IMG/VR virus record: IMGVR_UViG_3300045988_138778
Location: 1-13,930 of that record
Direction: 5' to 3' (one strand)
Length of the DNA: 13,930 nucleotides
Origin: a virus
Positions 1 to 13,930 of this stretch are shown here, one piece after another. Numbering within the stretch: position 1 is the stretch's first letter; each line of letters starts with the position of its first letter. Both the position numbers and the translations under genes were made by a program. The notes under the pieces are model-generated. The model was not told the origin of the DNA and did no database searches. It was given only the letters and a program-made list of their open reading frames with translations.

Positions 1-55
1 ACATATCGCTATACGTTACACCGACATAGAAAGGGAAGAATTTGAAATGAAAAAA
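1..55. repeat. Left inverted terminal repeat (ITR), 55 bp
   Basis: Read directly. Positions 1-55 (acatatcgctatacgttacaccgacatagaaagggaagaatttgaaatgaaaaa) equal the reverse complement of 13876-13930 with no mismatch. Identity stops at position 56 (c versus t). ITRs on a genome that encodes a protein-primed PolB mark replication origins at linear ends. Confidence 0.95.
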
Positions 56-295: not shown

Positions 296-908
296 ACCTA
301 CACAATACGCGTGGCAAGATTTAGAATACACACCGTACTATCTCAATAAGCACACGGAAGCAGAGCTGCGCAAAGAATATAGTAAACTCCGATCTGTTGT
401 GCGCAAACGTCAAGAGCGTCTTGATAAATCAGAATTTTCGGATCTCCGAGAAGTCAAGCATTATGGCAAGTTACCGCCTGTTGCGCAGATTAAGAACAAG
501 CAGCAACTTGTCTATGCGCTTGCAGAAGCAAAGCGATTTTTGAAGGAAGATATATCAATCACTCGTTTTAAGCGTGAACGTAAAGACATGGTTGCAAAAC
601 TCAATGCCAACGGTTATGAATTTGTTACAAATACAAACTTTTTATCGTTTGTCATGTTTATGGAGACGATGCGCGCCATCGCGCAAAATATGCGTTTTGA
701 CTCGGAAGTGCTCGTAAACGCATATGAGAATGTGACAACCGGCAAAATTTCTGCATCAAAATTGCAAAAGTGGTTTACCGATTTTATCAAAAAACAAGAA
801 CAAGCTGCCTGCGACTTTCCCGATAAATATTCCCGTACAAAAGGGGGTAAGGTGAAAATTGAAAGTAAAGACCTTGAAGAATGGGCAAGTCATTTGTTCG
901 GTGATTGA
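282..908 (+). CDS. Putative terminal protein (replication primer), about 208 aa; start uncertain
   Basis: The ORF sits directly upstream of, and overlaps, the protein-primed PolB gene, which is the phi29 gene 3 / gene 2 arrangement. It is basic and helical, and EYSKLRSVVRKRQERL resembles the phi29 TP N-terminal segment EYARLVKNTKAKIART as I recall it. The frame opens at TTG 255. I prefer TTG 282 because AGGAAAGGAG (264-273) lies 8 nt upstream. There is no in-frame ATG near the 5' end. The function is inferred from synteny. Confidence 0.5.
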   Translation: MAKRKPTQYAWQDLEYTPYYLNKHTEAELRKEYSKLRSVVRKRQERLDKSEFSDLREVKHYGKLPPVAQIKNKQQLVYALAEAKRFLKEDISITRFKRERKDMVAKLNANGYEFVTNTNFLSFVMFMETMRAIAQNMRFDSEVLVNAYENVTTGKISASKLQKWFTDFIKKQEQAACDFPDKYSRTKGGKVKIESKDLEEWASHLFGD

Positions 909-2955
909 TTTTCCGCTTGAAGAATTCGCAGAGCTGCCGGTGCTGGATCGCAAAATCACAAGAACCAAAAAGACAAAATTGCTTGATATTGTGACAGCGT
1001 TTGACATTGAAACAACACGCATTAAATCAATAGAACAAGCTGTGATGTATATCTGGCAATGGCATTTTGCAGATCCTATCAACCTAACTGTCGTTGGTCG
1101 CACTTGGGAAGAATTTGAAGCATTTTGTGCAAGTCTCGAAGCATATATGCGGGCGCTATCCCAAGAAGATTATCATTTGCAGCTTTGTGTTTATGTCCAT
1201 AATTTATCATATGAGTTTCAGTTTTTGCGCGGAATTTATCATTTTACAAACGATGAAATTTTTGCTGTTGACTGCCGCAAAGTCCTTAAATGCACAATGT
1301 ACGATAATTTTTTTGAATTTCGTTGCAGCTATCTGCACAGCAATATGTCGCTTGATGCATATACCCACAAAATGGGCGTTGCCCACGGCAAACTATCCGG
1401 TGTAAAATTTGACTATAATAAACCCCGTTATCCATGGACTCCGTTGTCGGACGATGAATTGGAATATTGTGTAAATGATGTGCTCGGTCTGTGTGAAGCT
1501 TTAACAATTGAAATGCGCCATGATAATGACAATCTGTACACAATCCCTCTAACCTCTACCGGATATGTGCGCCGCGATGCGCGTGCCGCGATGAAACGCG
1601 CAGGGCTGGAACGTCTCGGCGCAATTCAGCCCGATGCAGAATTGTATAGAATGCTGCGCGAAGCGTTCCGTGGTGGTAACACTCACGCCAACCGCTATTA
1701 TACCGGTCAAGTGCTGCGCGGCAAAATCCAAAGTGCGGACCGCAGCAGCAGTTACCCGGATGTGTTGTGTAATTGTCTGTACCCGATGCGGGCATTTGAG
1801 CCGTTGGGCGAGATAACACTTGATGGACTCAAGCGCAAACTTAACCAGCACCGGAAAGCGTTAATAATGCGGATCGCATTAACAGACGTTGAGTTAATCA
1901 ACCCCTGCTGGGGTTGTCCATATCTAACGATTGACAAGAGCCGGAATGTAATTGATCCTGACCGTGACAACGGGCGGATCTTGAGCGCAAAATATCTGGA
2001 GACAACGGTCACAGATGTGGATCTTGCTATTATCCTTAAAGAGTACAAGTTTAGTGGTTTTAGGGCATTTGACTGCTGGCAATCCACCTATGCAAAATTG
2101 CCGCGCGAACTAATTGAATGTGCAATAGATTATTACCGCGCAAAAACCAGTTTGAAAAATGTACCCGGTCAAGAATTGTACTACATGAAAAGCAAAAACA
2201 AACTTAATAGTATATACGGCATGATGGCACAGGATCCCGGCAAGCGCTCCATATTATACACCCCCGAAGAAGAATTTGAAATTGATGAAAAAACGCCAAT
2301 CGAAAAAATCTTGTCACAGAATCTGCGCAATGCCTTTTTGTGTTACCAATGGGGCGTTTGGGTAACAGCTAACGCACGCTACCGCCTTGAAGAGGGTATC
2401 GAACTTGCAGGAGATGGCTTTGTGTATTGTGACACCGACTCGGTTAAATATCTGGGTGACATTGACTGGACAAAATACAACAAAGCCAGAATCAAAGATA
2501 GTAAAGCCTCTGGTGCCTATGCTGCTGACCCATCCGGCAAAATGCATTATATGGGAGTGTTCGAGCCAGAGCACGACATGTGCGAATTTGCCACGTTGGG
2601 CGCGAAAAAATACTGTTACCGCGAAACGCCAGAAAGCCCATTGTGCTGCACGATCGCTGGTGTAAATAAAAAAGAGGGTGCAAAAGAGTTGGAACGCCAC
2701 GGCGGTATTGATGCGTTTAAGCCCGGCTTTGTTTTCAAGGACGCGGGCGGCACAGAATCCGTATACAATGATAGTCCAGAGATAGACAGCATTACAATAG
2801 ACGGTCACACATTGCCAATAACCTCAAATGTAGTTATCCGGGAAAGCACCTATAAACTCGGTATCACATCAGAATATATGGATCTGCTGCTGCGCTGCGA
2901 CTATACCCGAAATGGAATTGGCAGGCTGGATGTATATTTTGAAAATGGATATTGA
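859..2955 (+). CDS. Protein-primed family-B DNA polymerase (phi29 gp2-like), 698 aa
   Basis: Motifs read in the translation:
- ExoI FDIETT (about nt 1000-1017);
- ExoII HNLSYEFQF;
- ExoIII YCVNDV;
- motif A DRSSSYPDV (Dx2SxYP);
- motif B KNKLNSIYG (Kx3NSxYG, about nt 2194-2220);
- motif C YCDTDS (about nt 2426-2443);
- KxY motif GAKKYCY.
The start is TTG 859, preceded by AAGGGGGTAAGGTG. It overlaps the upstream gene by 50 nt. Confidence 0.95.
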   Translation: MKVKTLKNGQVICSVIDFPLEEFAELPVLDRKITRTKKTKLLDIVTAFDIETTRIKSIEQAVMYIWQWHFADPINLTVVGRTWEEFEAFCASLEAYMRALSQEDYHLQLCVYVHNLSYEFQFLRGIYHFTNDEIFAVDCRKVLKCTMYDNFFEFRCSYLHSNMSLDAYTHKMGVAHGKLSGVKFDYNKPRYPWTPLSDDELEYCVNDVLGLCEALTIEMRHDNDNLYTIPLTSTGYVRRDARAAMKRAGLERLGAIQPDAELYRMLREAFRGGNTHANRYYTGQVLRGKIQSADRSSSYPDVLCNCLYPMRAFEPLGEITLDGLKRKLNQHRKALIMRIALTDVELINPCWGCPYLTIDKSRNVIDPDRDNGRILSAKYLETTVTDVDLAIILKEYKFSGFRAFDCWQSTYAKLPRELIECAIDYYRAKTSLKNVPGQELYYMKSKNKLNSIYGMMAQDPGKRSILYTPEEEFEIDEKTPIEKILSQNLRNAFLCYQWGVWVTANARYRLEEGIELAGDGFVYCDTDSVKYLGDIDWTKYNKARIKDSKASGAYAADPSGKMHYMGVFEPEHDMCEFATLGAKKYCYRETPESPLCCTIAGVNKKEGAKELERHGGIDAFKPGFVFKDAGGTESVYNDSPEIDSITIDGHTLPITSNVVIRESTYKLGITSEYMDLLLRCDYTRNGIGRLDVYFENGY

Positions 2956-2980
2956 CATATGGCCGCAAATGCCGTATCAT
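2952..2980 (+). promoter_or_regulatory. Sigma-A/sigma-70-type promoter for the SSB gene
   Basis: TTGACA (2952-2957), a 17-nt spacer, then TATCAT (2975-2980). A perfect TATAAT overlaps at 2980-2985. The -35 overlaps the PolB stop codon. A 7-bp stem-loop (ttgtagc aagaaa gctacaa, 2985-3004) sits at the predicted transcript 5' end. Confidence 0.6.
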
Positions 2981-3036: not shown

Positions 3037-3387
3037 ATGAAAATCACAAAGAGCTATCCCGAAAATCTGACTCTGAAACAGGCTTACAACCTGACCCGCA
3101 GCCCCGAAAGCCGCAACATGAAAACGTTAGAAGGTGCAACTTTTAATGTTGAAGCTTATGCCCTGTATGAGGATGCAAACGCCAAAGGTGAAGAGCAGGA
3201 GATTCTTGCAGTTCTTACCAGCGAGGGCGATACGTTCAGCACCATTTCCGAAACGTTTAAGCGCGACTTTGCAGCAATCGTTGATGTTGTCAACCAGTAC
3301 GATGCTGACCTCACCACTGTAGACATCGAAGTCATTGGCGGCGAAAGCAAAAATGGCCGTCATTACATCGATTGCAAGATGAACTAA
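3037..3387 (+). CDS. Single-stranded DNA-binding protein, phi29 p5-like (116 aa)
   Basis: ATG is preceded by AAAGGAG. The size matches phi29 p5 (124 aa). Segments resemble my recollection of p5: ILAVLTSEGDTFSTISETF versus TTIFAADGSLYSAISKTV, and IEVIGGESKNGRHYIDCK versus VKVVQGTSSKGNVFFSLQ. A dedicated promoter and terminator fit a highly expressed protein. Confidence 0.55.
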   Translation: MKITKSYPENLTLKQAYNLTRSPESRNMKTLEGATFNVEAYALYEDANAKGEEQEILAVLTSEGDTFSTISETFKRDFAAIVDVVNQYDADLTTVDIEVIGGESKNGRHYIDCKMN

Positions 3388-3418: not shown

Positions 3419-3462
3419 ATCAAACGGGCGGCGGCATAAAAACCGCCGCCCGTTTGATTTTA
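3419..3462 (+). terminator. Rho-independent terminator after the SSB gene
   Basis: A 16-bp GC-rich stem (3419-3434 pairs with 3443-3458), loop cataaaaa, then ATTTTA. On the minus strand the stem is not followed by a U-tract, so it is oriented for + transcripts. Confidence 0.8.
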
Positions 3463-3478: not shown

Positions 3479-4543
3479 ATGAAAAAGAACAAACTATACC
3501 TAGACAGCGGATACCTGAACATGGATTATATCATGGGCTTGAAAACACCCTATATTATGGTTGTCGGCGGACGCGGCACTGGTAAAACATACGGTGCATT
3601 AAAATATGTACTTGAGCACCGGATCACTTTCATGCTCATGCGCCGCACACAAACTGCTATTGACCTTGTCAATAAACCAGAGTTTAGCCCCATTAAGCCG
3701 GTCTGTGAAGATATGGGATTAAGCATCAAACCTTTTCCGATCTCCAAGGGAAGCAGCGCTTTTTACGATGTAGATGAAGAGGGCCATAACTTGGGTGGCC
3801 TGCCGTATGGCTACACCTGCGCACTTTCGACAATCTCCAATATGCGCGGTTTTAGCGCGGAAGATTGCAAAATTTGTATTTATGATGAATTCATTCCGGA
3901 AAAACACGAACGCCCGTTGAAAAATGAAGCCGCTGCATTTTATAATGCATATGAAACAATCAACCGAAATAGAGAGTTGAAAGGTGATCCGCCCCTTAAA
4001 ATGCTGTGTCTTGCCAACGCAAACGATATTGCAAACCCCCTGTTTTTAGACATGGGGCTTGTGGCAAGAGCGCAACGGATGATCGACACCAAAACAGAGA
4101 TGTGGCAAGATAATGATCGCGGCATTACTATGATAATGTTGCAGCACTCCCCAATCTCTGCGGAAAAAGCAAACACCGCACTATACCGGCTTACAAAAAA
4201 TACATTGTATAGCGCAATGGCGCTGGATAATGATTTTAGGCAAGAGTATAGCCGGATCACCCCTCAAAAAATCATTGAGTATAAGCCGGTGTGCGTTGTG
4301 GGTGAACTGGAAATCTACCAACACAAATCCCGCGCTCAATATTATGTAACAACCCACAAATCGGGCGTTTGCCCAACCTATGAGAGCACAGAGCGCGGGA
4401 TTCAGATGTTTAACGCGCACTTTTCATGGTTTAGGCTCACATACTATTTAAGCAATACCGTGTTGTTTGAGTCTCCTATCTGTGAAGTTTTACTAGATAA
4501 GTATTTTCGGGAAGGTGCGAAAATCTCAAGTCGAAAAGCATAA
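3479..4543 (+). CDS. DNA packaging (encapsidation) ATPase, phi29 gp16-like (354 aa)
   Basis: Walker A is VGGRGTGKT (about nt 3562-3588) and Walker B is ICIYDEF (about nt 3871-3891). YDEFIPEK, INRNRE and CLANANDIANPLFL parallel phi29 gp16 FDEFIREK, FRNRER and CLSNAVSVVNPYFL as I recall them. Confidence 0.9.
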   Translation: MKKNKLYLDSGYLNMDYIMGLKTPYIMVVGGRGTGKTYGALKYVLEHRITFMLMRRTQTAIDLVNKPEFSPIKPVCEDMGLSIKPFPISKGSSAFYDVDEEGHNLGGLPYGYTCALSTISNMRGFSAEDCKICIYDEFIPEKHERPLKNEAAAFYNAYETINRNRELKGDPPLKMLCLANANDIANPLFLDMGLVARAQRMIDTKTEMWQDNDRGITMIMLQHSPISAEKANTALYRLTKNTLYSAMALDNDFRQEYSRITPQKIIEYKPVCVVGELEIYQHKSRAQYYVTTHKSGVCPTYESTERGIQMFNAHFSWFRLTYYLSNTVLFESPICEVLLDKYFREGAKISSRKA

Positions 4544-4544
4544 A

Positions 4545-4575
4545 AACAGCCCCTGCCGTATTGGCAGGGGCTGTT
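4545..4575. terminator. Shared hairpin terminator between the convergent arms
   Basis: A 13-bp perfect stem (aacagcccctgcc 4545-4557 pairs with ggcaggggctgtt 4563-4575) with loop gtatt. It lies between the ATPase stop (4543) and the tailspike stop (4580). Read on the minus strand it is followed by TTTTA. The + strand tail is weaker (gctgtt). Confidence 0.75.
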
Positions 4576-7476: not shown

Positions 7477-8088
7477 TTAGTATATCAAAAGCAAGAACTG
7501 TTGTTTGAATTTATCAATCAAATAATCGTACATGTTCCAATCAGCAACACGGCGTTCCTCTTCGATCATCTGCTGACTGGTTGTTACACCAATGTTGCCG
7601 TGTACTCGCCCTGTGTGTTTTAACTCTTCCTTGCTGTTGCCCTCGCTTTTGCCGGTCTGTGTGCTCTCGTTGGTGCTATCATTGTCATTTTGACCGCTGG
7701 TAACAAGGTTTCCGCTGTCAAAGCCAGCCGCCTTGCTAATATCGGTACTATGATTTTTACCCTTGCCCGTGTCGGTGCTCTTCACATTGCTGTTAGTTTG
7801 ATTATTGTCTGTCCAATCCTCTTGCCGGTCATAGTTTTCAATTGGGTTGTATTCCAGCTTTGTTGTGTTCCACATCTTTTCCCAACTGTCTAAATGTGCG
7901 CTTGACCATATGCCAATGACAGAGCGCATGGTTGCGGGGTTTGAAAAAAGCACTTCCATTTCCGCTGTCTCCATCAACAGATTGTTGATGTACAGTTGTT
8001 TGTCCATGCCATCCGGCAACACAAGCTCATCAAAAATGCTATTGTCGTATTGATACAGCCCTAACAGTGACAAGGTTGCTCTACTCAT
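7477..8088 (-). CDS. Putative lower collar / head-tail adaptor-tube protein (203 aa)
   Basis: I prefer ATG 8088, preceded by GTGAGGGCGG, which overlaps the portal stop (ATGAGTAG). The track's 7477..8178 reading would start inside the portal gene. It sits directly downstream of the portal, as phi29 gene 11 does. The central Asn/Ser/Thr/Gly-rich segment (NQTNSNVKSTDTGKGKN...NDNDSTNESTQTGKSEGNS) fits an extended tube-forming insertion. Confidence 0.45.
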   Translation of the reverse strand: MSRATLSLLGLYQYDNSIFDELVLPDGMDKQLYINNLLMETAEMEVLFSNPATMRSVIGIWSSAHLDSWEKMWNTTKLEYNPIENYDRQEDWTDNNQTNSNVKSTDTGKGKNHSTDISKAAGFDSGNLVTSGQNDNDSTNESTQTGKSEGNSKEELKHTGRVHGNIGVTTSQQMIEEERRVADWNMYDYLIDKFKQQFLLLIY

Positions 8089-8992
8089 CTTCGCCGCCCT
8101 CACTTCCCGCGCTGATCTGCGGCTTGTTGCGCCACTCCACGCCAAGTTTGATGCCAAACATTTTGCTAGTTTGGGCAAAACTCTTTTGCAGCTGATCCAG
8201 CCACAGATCCGCTTTGCTGGTTACTTCCACGTTGTTCGCGTTGACCTCATCGCTGATAAGGCGCTCTTTTTTGTCCGTGTTTGCGTTAGGGATACCAACG
8301 TCCGTGTCAAACATCATTTCCCACTTGCGCAGGTCTGCCAACGCATCACCGGCAATATAGTTTTGCCCCACATTTTGCTGAAAAGGTATCCAAGAGGGGT
8401 TGCCGCTCTGGACATCATACAACGCGGTATCAACAAATGTTGCTGGCTCACCGCTTGCTACACGGTCAAACAGTTTTTTCTGGCTCTCCGCCGTGTTTTT
8501 ATTTTTACCAAAAAACACATAGGACAAACGGCTATTGACAAGGTTTACACCTGCGGTTTCCGCGGTCAATGACATCATATCGGCATAAAATCCCACCAAG
8601 TCCATAACGCTGCCATAATCAGGTTGCAGCTTGATAAGCGTGCATTGCGTGCCGATCTCCAACCGGCGCAAACCTCGAAGCAGGGGATTTGTGACAAGGG
8701 CACGTTTGGGCTGATAAAAGATGTTGTACCCGTCAAGCCCGCACTGCTGCGGGATAACTCCGTACTTGTCAGTGTTGAGTACGGCAATATAGCCGATGCC
8801 GTACAAAACATACAAAAAATAGTCTCTGTCCCACGTTTCCGGCAAATCCCACTTAAATACAGACATTGCTTTTTGCAGCAAGTAGCGGGCAAAAAAGCGT
8901 TGCAGCTCTGTGTTTTTGGTGTGTACCGTGCTAGGGCTGTGCTGACTTACTTCTGCGTTGATGTAATCGTACATATAAGGCGCGGCCTGCAT
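8081..8992 (-). CDS. Portal (upper collar / connector) protein, phi29 gp10-like (303 aa)
   Basis: The size is close to phi29 gp10 (309 aa). KWEMMFDTDVGIPNANTDKKERLISDEVNANNVEVTS parallels gp10 [36 protein letters not shown] as I recall it. I prefer ATG 8992, which lies 8 nt after AAGGGGG and shares one nucleotide with the upstream stop (TAATG), over GTG 9001. Confidence 0.85.
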   Translation of the reverse strand: MQAAPYMYDYINAEVSQHSPSTVHTKNTELQRFFARYLLQKAMSVFKWDLPETWDRDYFLYVLYGIGYIAVLNTDKYGVIPQQCGLDGYNIFYQPKRALVTNPLLRGLRRLEIGTQCTLIKLQPDYGSVMDLVGFYADMMSLTAETAGVNLVNSRLSYVFFGKNKNTAESQKKLFDRVASGEPATFVDTALYDVQSGNPSWIPFQQNVGQNYIAGDALADLRKWEMMFDTDVGIPNANTDKKERLISDEVNANNVEVTSKADLWLDQLQKSFAQTSKMFGIKLGVEWRNKPQISAGSEGGEDE

Positions 8993-9543
8993 TATTTGCA
9001 CCCCCTTGCCATTTTAAGCAATAGCCATACCGGGATTGCTTTTTTCCCCGGCGTGGGCGGCTCTGGGCCGGGGCCGGGCGGATTGTCTGCACTCCATGTT
9101 ACATCATACTTACCAACCGCGTTAGGGATGCCCAAAATCCGGGATGGATCTTGACGGTAACGAGTAGAGCGTCCGCCAACCCAATACTCCCAATGGGTAT
9201 GCACACCGGTTGCATTGCCGGTCTGACCCTGTGTGCCGATCAAGTCACCCGCATTGAGCACCTCTCCGACCTTATGTGTCTGTGCCTTAAAGTGCGCAGC
9301 CAGCCAATAACGTTTGTTGCCCATATCTACCACGATATAGTTGCCCCAACTGTCATTGCCAGTTTTGCCGCCTTGCCAAGTGTGCGCAGTCACAATCGTT
9401 CCGGCCTGCGGGGCAAACGCCAAAAAATCAGTTGGATGCTTGGTGTCAATGCCGCCGTGGTGCGATCCGTCCGAATAATACGGATATGCTGCGGTCACTG
9501 TGATTGTGCTTTCATCGGTGATACATTGCGGATAGCTTGCCAT
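8992..9543 (-). CDS. M23 (LytM-type) peptidoglycan endopeptidase, virion-associated lysin and/or endolysin (183 aa)
   Basis: HxxxD is present (HHGGID), as is HxH (GVHTHWEY), with a G-rich strand GTQGQTGNATG between them. These are the canonical M23 metallopeptidase signatures. ATG 9543 is preceded by AAAGGAG. The C-terminus is a Pro/Gly linker (PPGPGPEPPTPG) followed by a short hydrophobic/basic tail (KKAIPVWLLLKMARGCK). Confidence 0.85.
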   Translation of the reverse strand: MASYPQCITDESTITVTAAYPYYSDGSHHGGIDTKHPTDFLAFAPQAGTIVTAHTWQGGKTGNDSWGNYIVVDMGNKRYWLAAHFKAQTHKVGEVLNAGDLIGTQGQTGNATGVHTHWEYWVGGRSTRYRQDPSRILGIPNAVGKYDVTWSADNPPGPGPEPPTPGKKAIPVWLLLKMARGCK

Positions 9544-12325: not shown

Positions 12326-12616
12326 TCATTTCTGTGTTGCGGGTTTGGGCGGCAAGATAATGCTTGCAAGCACATCTTCCGCCGTCTGGGGTTTCGGCTG
12401 TTCAGTCGCCGCAATGTTCATGGTTTTGATCTGTTCGCCAAGTGCGTTAATTGCGGCAATAATACCGCCCGCATCCTCTACGGGTGCAGCGGGTGCAGCG
12501 GGTGCAGCGGGTGCAGCGGGTGCAGCGGGTGCAGCGTTGTCAAGAGTGACAAGCTTTGCAAGATCGTCTTTAGTGTAGCCTGCACGGCACAGGGCAATAA
12601 TATCATCAATAGTCAT
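12326..12616 (-). CDS. Putative scaffolding protein with (Ala-Ala-Pro)x6 linker (96 aa)
   Basis: Both size and position (directly upstream of the capsid gene) match phi29 gp7 (98 aa). ATG 12616 is preceded by AAGAGGTG. It has a short helical N-terminal module (DDIIALCRAGYTKDDLAKLV), the AAP repeat, then a helical C-terminal part. The function is inferred from synteny. Confidence 0.55.
   Translation of the reverse strand: MTIDDIIALCRAGYTKDDLAKLVTLDNAAPAAPAAPAAPAAPAAPVEDAGGIIAAINALGEQIKTMNIAATEQPKPQTAEDVLASIILPPKPATQK
12481..12536. repeat. Perfect 9-bp tandem repeat (cgggtgcag) x6 plus a partial copy
   Basis: Read directly. Six identical 9-mers span 12481-12534, followed by cg. On the minus strand this reads GCT GCA CCC x6 and encodes AAPAAPAAPAAPAAPAAP inside the scaffold-like gene. 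Confidence 0.95.
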
Positions 12617-13099: not shown

Positions 13100-13128
13100 A
13101 TAGTATCATATTATATTGTAAGTGTCAA
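13100..13128 (-). promoter_or_regulatory. Consensus sigma-A/sigma-70-type promoter heading the structural/lysis operon
   Basis: Minus strand: TTGACA (13128-13123), a 17-nt spacer, then TACTAT (13105-13100), with TG at the extended -10 position (aTGaTACTAT). The -35 overlaps the stop codon of the upstream small ORF. Confidence 0.65.
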
Positions 13129-13313
13129 GAGTTAAAATAAAATTTCCACTCCATATGGGGATTGACTAGCAAGGTGTCAAACTCATGTTTTGCAAGTGCG
13201 TAAGGCAGATCACCATATTCTCCATTATAAATGCAACGGTCGTTATCATACACGCGGATACTTGTTTTAGGCTGCATTGACACACACACCCGGTAAAAGT
13301 CACTGATTGTCAT
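13125..13313 (-). CDS. Small early protein (62 aa), paralog of the left-arm 47-295 product
   Basis: I prefer ATG 13313, which lies 9 nt after AAAGGGGA, over the track's TTG 13319. Similarity to the left-arm ORF is described under that feature. Confidence 0.7.
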   Translation of the reverse strand: MTISDFYRVCVSMQPKTSIRVYDNDRCIYNGEYGDLPYALAKHEFDTLLVNPHMEWKFYFNS

Positions 13314-13328
13314 TGCCAAACATCCCCT

Positions 13329-13687: not shown

Positions 13688-13746
13688 GTCAATCACTCCT
13701 CGCAAATATCAATTACAATACCGAATACCCACAACAGATTAAGCAT

Positions 13747-13884
13747 GTTTCAAACCTCTCTAATAACTTGCCCTGTGCTATACTCCGGGTTAATCTTGCG
13801 AGCCTGTGCAAGCGCTTCGTCAAAACTTTCTGCATTAACAATGAGTCCGCACAAGTCATCACCCGTTATAAACCATTTTTTCAT
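13747..13884 (-). CDS. Small early protein (45 aa; absent from the ORF track); its start codon lies inside the right ITR
   Basis: My own translation from ATG 13884, the ITR copy of the ATG at 47 with the same ITR-borne RBS, gives MKKWFITGDDLCGLIVNAESFDEALAQARKINPEYSTGQVIREV. Confidence 0.5.
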
Positions 13885-13930
13885 TTCAAATTCTTCCCTT
13901 TCTATGTCGGTGTAACGTATAGCGATATGT
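13876..13930. repeat. Right inverted terminal repeat (ITR), 55 bp
   Basis: Exact reverse complement of 1-55. Confidence 0.95.

Follow-up and report, generated by a model that had tools for sequence, protein, structure and literature searches.

Genome organization and gene content

The window, by which we mean the whole 13930-nt stretch of viral DNA analyzed here, belongs to a small, phi29-like phage that infects a Firmicute of the gut. Pfam searches identified a family-B protein-primed DNA polymerase, a phi29-type SSB, a gp16 packaging ATPase and a gp10 connector (Table 1), together with an M23 peptidase, and the genome is linear with inverted terminal repeats (ITRs), as in the phi29-like protein-primed podophages (the Salasmaviridae/Guelinviridae assemblage). 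Left-arm genes are read rightward and right-arm genes leftward, the two arms converging at a bidirectional terminator with a 13-bp stem at 4545–4575. The sole similar phage record in GenBank is MT835998, an unannotated contig from human faeces with 85% identity, and the closest cultured phages as judged by the polymerase (about 36% identity) infect Amedibacillus and Clostridium. The product encoded directly upstream of the polymerase gene is a candidate terminal protein, given the same position of that gene in Bacillus phage phi29 and Streptococcus phage Cp-1. The other genomes and contigs compared are referred to below by L numbers.

A perfect 16-bp inverted repeat (ATCAAACGGGCGGCGG / CCGCCGCCCGTTTGAT) was noted at 3419–3458, in the interval that separates the SSB gene from the ATPase gene. 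A 96-aa gene, situated upstream of the capsid gene, contains a perfect 9-nt tandem array at 12481–12536 (CGGGTGCAG, 6.2 copies), read as PAAPAAPAA and so on. The array is 27 nt shorter in L020, and L021 has a scaffold gap of 100 N at this place, so the copy number is not fixed by short-read assembly.

Table 1. Features of the window, with coordinates counted from its first nucleotide.
Feature	Position	Strand	Remarks
Left ITR arm, innermost 55 nt	1..55	+	Most of predicted 5′ leader, RBS, ATG and two Lys codons
Shine-Dalgarno region GAAAGGGAAG	29..38	+	8 nt 5′ of the ATG at 47–49; mirror copy at 13893–13902 (−)
ORF1, first left-arm gene, 82 aa	47..295	+	
Candidate terminal protein, 208 aa	282..908	+	TTG start 8 nt after GGAAAGGAG; assigned by position only
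Family-B protein-primed DNA polymerase	859..2955	+	PF03175, E = 1.2e-10, 41.3 bits (cutoff 25.8)
Promoter-like site TTGACA-17-TATCAT	2952–2980	+	Ahead of SSB gene
phi29-type SSB	3037–3387		PF17427, 3.9e-06, just above its cutoff
gp16 packaging ATPase	3479–4543		PF05894, 1.2e-14
gp10 connector	8081–9001	−	PF05352, 1.6e-18
Promoter-like site TTGACA-17-TACTAT, upstream TG	13128–13100	−	Ahead of right-arm genes below 13100
First right-arm gene, 44 aa, MKKWFITGDD...	13750..13884	−	
Right ITR arm, innermost 55 nt	13876..13930	−	Mirror of nt 1–55

Terminal repeat and terminal genes

The two very ends of the window carry an exact inverted repeat of 55 nt, which cannot be chance, and the arms diverge at nt 56 (c vs. 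t). The repeat can be extended to 66 nt at 92% identity, an extension we regard as incidental. Both arms read GAAAGGGAAG-N8-ATGAAAAAA, with ATG AAA AAA at 47–55 on the left, and the RBS block GAAAGGGAG is kept in all related ITRs in our alignment. The initial annotation, made from the sequence of the window, was therefore right that the repeat holds the RBS, the ATG and the first three codons of both terminal ORFs. It was also right, as far as the window goes, that the 46 nt upstream of each ATG contain no promoter: a promoter scan of the whole window gave nothing on the plus strand upstream of nt 47 and nothing at the mirror position on the right arm. The best promoter-like sites in internal intergenic sequence are the two listed in Table 1, both of which have a canonical −35, unlike the ITR promoter predicted below.

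The dN/dS values of the two terminal ORFs, 0.11–0.25, indicate purifying selection and show that both are real genes. In all close relatives the left arm opens with ORF1, at 68–100% amino acid identity and dN/dS of 0.11–0.25. An exact-protein look-up did not find ORF1 on record, because gene callers extend the ORF to the contig edge. Sequence searches of Pfam, PHROG and PDB gave no match for ORF1, the 44-aa right-arm gene or the candidate terminal protein. The 44-aa gene is also present in L010 and L012 (84–86% amino acid identity, dN/dS about 0.15), where it is the second gene and has its own RBS and start codon. The first right-arm gene differs across genomes, its product beginning MKKWFITGDD..., MKKEFMAKLI..., MIIRDAAV..., MMIIKDAF... 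or MIIKDAKG....

Several smaller observations were made on these genes. In L002, the A-run that follows the ITR ATG (255–262) has five A's and not six, which puts the ATG out of frame with the 44-aa gene (MKNGL-stop) and is due either to an error in the homopolymer or to genuine inactivation. A 64-aa ORF at 13125–13319 on the minus strand (MAMTISDFYRVCVSMQPK...) is a diverged paralogue of ORF1, about 32% identical over 40 aa with the DFYR.C motif included. It is conserved in all relatives, giving one ORF1-type copy per arm. An additional ORF1 copy occurs in tandem in L012 and L019. A hydrophobic micro-ORF of 17 aa, MLNLLWVFGIVIDICEE, follows an RBS-like GAGAGG at 13693–13746 on the minus strand; it is kept in L001, L003 and L008, and in L003 it adjoins the ITR directly.

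Truncation of the contig at the assembler k

The same phage was found in an independent MEGAHIT assembly as the ENA contig k109_59564 (L020/L022; 14011 nt), which is 99.8% identical to the window and was assembled with k = 109, a value taken from the name of the contig. Its two ends form an inverted repeat that is exact over 109 nt, with the inner boundary where it lies in the window and 54 extra nt outside each end. Inside, its sole difference from the window is a 27-nt gap in the tandem repeat, which gives the length observed (14011 = 13930 − 27 + 108). The length of the repeat thus varies with k, from 55 nt in the window to 109 nt in k109_59564, and the inner boundary remains constant. The largest default k of SPAdes is 55. 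Exact terminal repeats of 55 nt were also found in L008, L053, L070 and Amedibacillus phage AD70P2, and other exact terminal repeats fall on the k values 79 (L009, L051), 119 (L002) and 141 (L049). When de Bruijn unitigs were simulated from L004, which has an ITR of 300 nt, the terminal repeat was exactly k long for k = 55, 79, 109, 119 and 141. The outer limit of the 55-nt repeat is an assembly artefact.

A de Bruijn assembler would merge both copies of an ITR into one graph edge, and the contig of the unique region would retain only the k-mer common to that merged edge, ending k nt outside the point at which the arms diverge. A k-long overlap at the contig ends of circular genomes is well known; that overlap is direct, whereas ITR genomes show its inverted counterpart, simulated here. 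In MT835998 the inverted repeat extends 26 nt beyond window nt 1, where the contig end cuts it. Both ends of the window would be expected to continue outward with ...TATAATTGTACTATAAGGGT placed directly before ACATATCG. We conclude that the window is very probably an incomplete contig of a linear, protein-primed, phi29-like gut phage of about 14.4 kb, in which an ITR of about 300 nt has been cut at k and an inward promoter lies in the part that was lost.

If the window were instead complete, the ITR would truly be 55 nt and the terminal genes would have no conventional upstream promoter, leaving transcription to start at the DNA end or to use an unusual polymerase. This reading has only the window itself in its favour; L021 likewise begins at ACATATCG, but this too is a scaffold of that sort. 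We consider it highly improbable, given that the k = 109 assembly of the same phage goes 54 nt further at both ends, that repeat length equals the assembler k in many contigs as well as in the simulation, and that all relatives reaching further out have about 250 nt of additional ITR in common. Even harder to credit is a genome with no ITR in which a chimeric assembly copied one end onto the other. Inverted-repeat artefacts are known in metagenome assemblies and some ITR contigs have been doubted (PMC9610469), but here the same two arms come from independent samples and assemblers, and in about 10 related genomes each arm then leads into different conserved genes under purifying selection. The arms also differ at a few positions in L002 and L009, which argues for two real copies, and the window encodes a protein-primed polymerase and a phi29-type module. 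A truncated ITR is the reading we carry forward.

Full-length ITR in related genomes

Exact ITRs of 300 nt and 294 nt were found in L004 (14452 nt) and L007 (14295 nt), respectively, and both of these genomes and L003 begin at a common terminus, 5′-GCGTA. The perfect identity of the arms in L004 and L007 may come from assembly and so does not count as independent evidence for homogenisation. When aligned with the 300-nt ITR of L004, window nt 1 falls at nt 252. By this alignment, about 245–250 nt would be absent from each end of the window, about 500 nt in all, and the full genome should be about 14.4 kb, like those of the relatives. The ITR of the window's own strain is seen to 109 nt, and the figure of about 300 nt rests on the relatives. 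In L004 and L007 the ATG is at nt 295–296 on both arms, so that the inward-facing first genes are equidistant from the ends.

Several statements of the initial annotation change once the missing part is considered. The 46 nt available upstream of each ATG reflect a contig cut k nt outside the inner boundary of the ITR, and the true termini should lie about 250 nt further out. The terminal genes were said to have no recognisable promoter upstream, and an invariant TATAAT block, which we predict to be a −10, is located 14 nt beyond window nt 1. The replication origin and the translation-initiation region were taken to be the same DNA and would instead be about 250 nt apart. Both the missing promoter and the apparent overlap of origin and translation start are explained by truncation of the contig at k. 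The suspicion that a few terminal nucleotides are missing went in the right direction, although the loss would be larger by about two orders of magnitude. The lack of a sliding-back reiteration in 5′-ACATAT is moot, as these bases are internal, not terminal, because the ITR extends about 250 nt further out.

Read from the outside in, the ITR would consist of the terminus and origin (5′-GCGTA...), about 200 nt of partly conserved sequence with an invariant 24-nt block, the promoter, a leader some 55 nt long, and then the RBS GAAAGGGAG followed by the start codon. In Bam35, replication uses a single-nucleotide jumping-back that leads from the third base to the first (PMC5175343). The terminus 5′-GCG found here (template 3′-CGC, in which the first base equals the third) is compatible with jumping-back of the Bam35 type, and the contigs may lack 1–2 bases.

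The invariant block of the outer ITR, at 153–176 in L004 and absent from the window, is TTGCTAGTTATAAGAATGATACAA flanked by two copies of ACAATTG. It is as conserved as the −10 region and is a candidate protein-binding site. A second promoter within this block was considered and dropped, since no acceptable hexamer pair could be read on either strand. Structured RNA in the outer ITR was considered as well: RNAalifold covariation terms were positive on both strands (five sequences), and the idea was set aside as unsupported, though not disproved. Rfam searches of the window and the full-length relatives, including a lax search with the ITRs only, gave no pRNA or other match. The outer ITR holds only short ORFs, none of them convincing as a protein-coding gene. 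An exact-match scan of IMG/VR and the JGI metagenomes for the window's own ITR returned no match, and a scan with an invariant 20-mer returned only the known relatives and two unrelated chance matches.

Predicted inward promoter

The 54 nt directly outside window nt 1, as given by k109_59564, are AGTACATGTACCTGTAAGGCGTTCTATGCTATACTATAATTGTACTATAAGGGT and include TGcTATACTATAAT. We aligned the ITRs of seven relatives (eight sequences) and found a mean column identity of 77%, with the two longest invariant runs being TATACTATAATTGT and TTGCTAGTTATAAGAATGAT(A)CAA, both still invariant when L020 was added, and with the RBS as the next best conserved block. The first of these runs contains a perfect TATAAT overlapping TGcTATACT, an extended −10, and it is positioned 14 nt outside window nt 1 and about 60 nt 5′ of the ATG, facing inward. 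The −10 block is retained in L012 despite a replaced leader, and in L009 one arm has lost 5 nt in such a way that TGcTATAAT is formed anew. A scan for two hexamers accepted the site in L004 alone (CTGAAA-17-TATAAT, 10/12) and rejected it in L020, L007 and the distant L071, the −35 being weak and variable. From consensus, position and conservation, TGcTATACTATAAT is likely the −10 of an inward early promoter, and we would place the transcription start 8–13 nt before window nt 1. If this promoter call is right, window nt 1–46 are nearly the whole 5′ leader. A structured or regulatory leader was considered and rejected, the fold being unremarkable (z = 0.13).

Two features surrounding the block were also noted. 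In the ITR of L004 (201–256), ATGTACC upstream and GGGTAC(A/T)T downstream of the −10 block form an inverted repeat around the predicted promoter, and GTACC-N5-GGTAC could form a small hairpin at the predicted transcription start, a putative operator.

It is also conceivable that the ITR is truncated as proposed and yet transcription of the terminal genes does not come from the TATAAT block, their promoter being further out (e.g., near TTGCTAGTTATAAGAATGATACAA) or dependent on a phage-encoded factor, with TATAAT serving as a protein-binding or origin-associated site. In keeping with this, the −35 is poor and unconserved, leading the scan to refuse L020, L007 and L071, and a small hairpin with some covarying pairs overlaps the −35 position. 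The second invariant block (TTGCTAGTTATAAGAATGATACAA) has no assigned role, and the opposite strand of the TATAAT block also reads as a −10 (TACAAT, TATAGT), the scan of L004 giving an outward site at 270–241. Against this, TGn-TATACT/TATAAT is a textbook extended −10 at a normal distance (about 60 nt) from the ATG, the block survives replacement of the leader in L012 and TGcTATAAT is recreated in L009, and the other block yields no acceptable two-hexamer promoter. We judge a role other than promoter unlikely for the TATAAT block and continue to treat it as the predicted −10.

Inner boundary of the ITR at the start codon

The ITR includes ATGAAAAAA as its innermost part in the window, L020 and L001, and it stops after ATGA in L004. 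Its inner edge coincides with the ATG in L007, where a 1-nt indel shifts it, and lies just before the ATG in L003. There are a few arm-to-arm mismatches in the inner ITR of L002 and L009, and similarity still stops at the ATG. In L071, which has only 40% polymerase identity, an exact ITR of 305 nt stops after ATGAAA (...AGAGAGGTAAGGAAGATGAAA). The inner boundary at the start codon is real and is conserved in this phage group and one distant relative. The possibility raised in the initial annotation, that the conserved repeat always stops just after the ATG, is borne out to within a few nt in L071 and in each close relative that has both of its ends, but the rule is not universal: the more distant L049, L050 and L065 have repeats that end upstream of their first genes. 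The sharing of Met-Lys-Lys was dropped as a conserved feature, as the shared coding part is 0–9 nt among relatives and is thus incidental. In L008, the exact 55-nt terminal repeat consists of the 3′ end of an MKKEF-type gene and AAACATG, ending in ...GTGTGAAACATG. The ITR of this phage has apparently absorbed one whole gene and again ends at an ATG, with the contig again cut at k = 55.

Under the proposed arrangement both arms would hand their first gene an identical promoter, leader, RBS and ATG, and early transcription would run inward from both ends. From the left it would enter ORF1 and go on into the genes for the candidate terminal protein and the DNA polymerase, and from the right it would enter a variable set of small genes. 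Beyond the identical ITR of the right arm, the first gene is one of at least five unrelated ones, depending on the genome, and the slot gene is absent in L003. These observations are the basis for a tentative suggestion, which we hold to be possible rather than probable, that the ITR is a portable cassette for origin and early expression whose inner edge is pinned to the start codon, where genes are captured, swapped or absorbed. If so, through recombination or strand switching at the recurring RBS-TTTGAAA(C)ATG motif, the right end would be a hot spot for the acquisition of genes expressed on DNA entry.

Implications for genome completeness

The biology described here is modest: in a clade of small phi29-like phages of the human gut, a long ITR would give an origin, a predicted early promoter, a leader, an RBS and a start codon to both arms. 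A more general point concerns how such contigs are read. Genomes are commonly regarded as complete when they show an ITR of at least 20 nt (PMC9610469). As seen with the window, an exact ITR may instead flag a contig that is missing hundreds of bases per end, including the origin and early promoters, and the warning sign is an exact repeat whose length equals a common k (55, 79, 99, 119, 127 or 141). This warning extends to at least one deposited "complete" phage genome. The record in question is that of Amedibacillus phage AD70P2 (L023, OP172638), deposited as a complete genome, in which an exact 55-nt repeat lies inside an imperfect one of 81 nt; like the window, it may be truncated at k = 55.

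Comparison with known systems

The cultured phages nearest by polymerase (about 36% identity), Amedibacillus phages AD70P2/AD70P3 (Guelinviridae) and Clostridium phage HM2, have genomes of 12–17 kb. The ITR is 81 nt and imperfect in AD70P2 and about 170 nt in HM2, and in HM2 it differs from that of the window phage in stopping about 44 nt before the first candidate start. Enterobacteria phage PRD1 (Tectiviridae) is comparable in that its genome, about 15 kb long, is linear and protein-primed, has an exact ITR and carries early genes reading inward from both ends. It differs in being tailless, in its ITR of 110 nt and in first genes that begin about 233–240 nt from the ends. PRD1 was considered as a precedent for promoters within an ITR and rejected, the only left promoter-like site (144–173) being in unique sequence, inward of the 110-nt ITR and outside it.

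Bacillus phage phi29 resembles the window phage in its polymerase, SSB, gp16 ATPase and connector families, in having early genes on both arms and in its protein-primed ends. Its early promoters are in unique sequence and its pRNA is encoded near the left end, the pRNA being defining for the Bacillus phi29 group only. Rfam, by contrast, finds no pRNA in the window or the full-length relatives. The phi29 ITR is only 6 nt, AAAGTA (PMC11476376, PMC4974454).

Streptococcus phage Cp-1 (Salasmaviridae, Cepunavirus) is likewise a protein-primed, phi29-like podophage with a long ITR, annotated in RefSeq as 236 nt. In our own alignment the Cp-1 ends are near-identical to about nt 352, a span that covers annotated −35/−10 pairs and transcription starts on both arms. 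On the left arm the −35 is at 222–227 and the −10 at 245–250, mirrored on the right, and further promoters with mapped starts are annotated for the left arm (PE1/PE2) and for the right arm (PE4/PE5). The first genes begin 376 and 375 nt from the two ends, and the left arm has small ORFs followed by the terminal protein and DNA polymerase genes. The promoters of Cp-1 are canonical TTGACA/TATAAT, whereas the −35 in the group of the window phage is weak. In Cp-1 the similarity of the ends fades about 20 nt before the ATG, leaving the RBS and start unshared, whereas in the window phage identity continues through the RBS and 0–9 nt into the ORF. The layout is therefore already known from Cp-1, and the present group extends the Cp-1 design by a few tens of nt and has a right arm whose first-gene slot varies.
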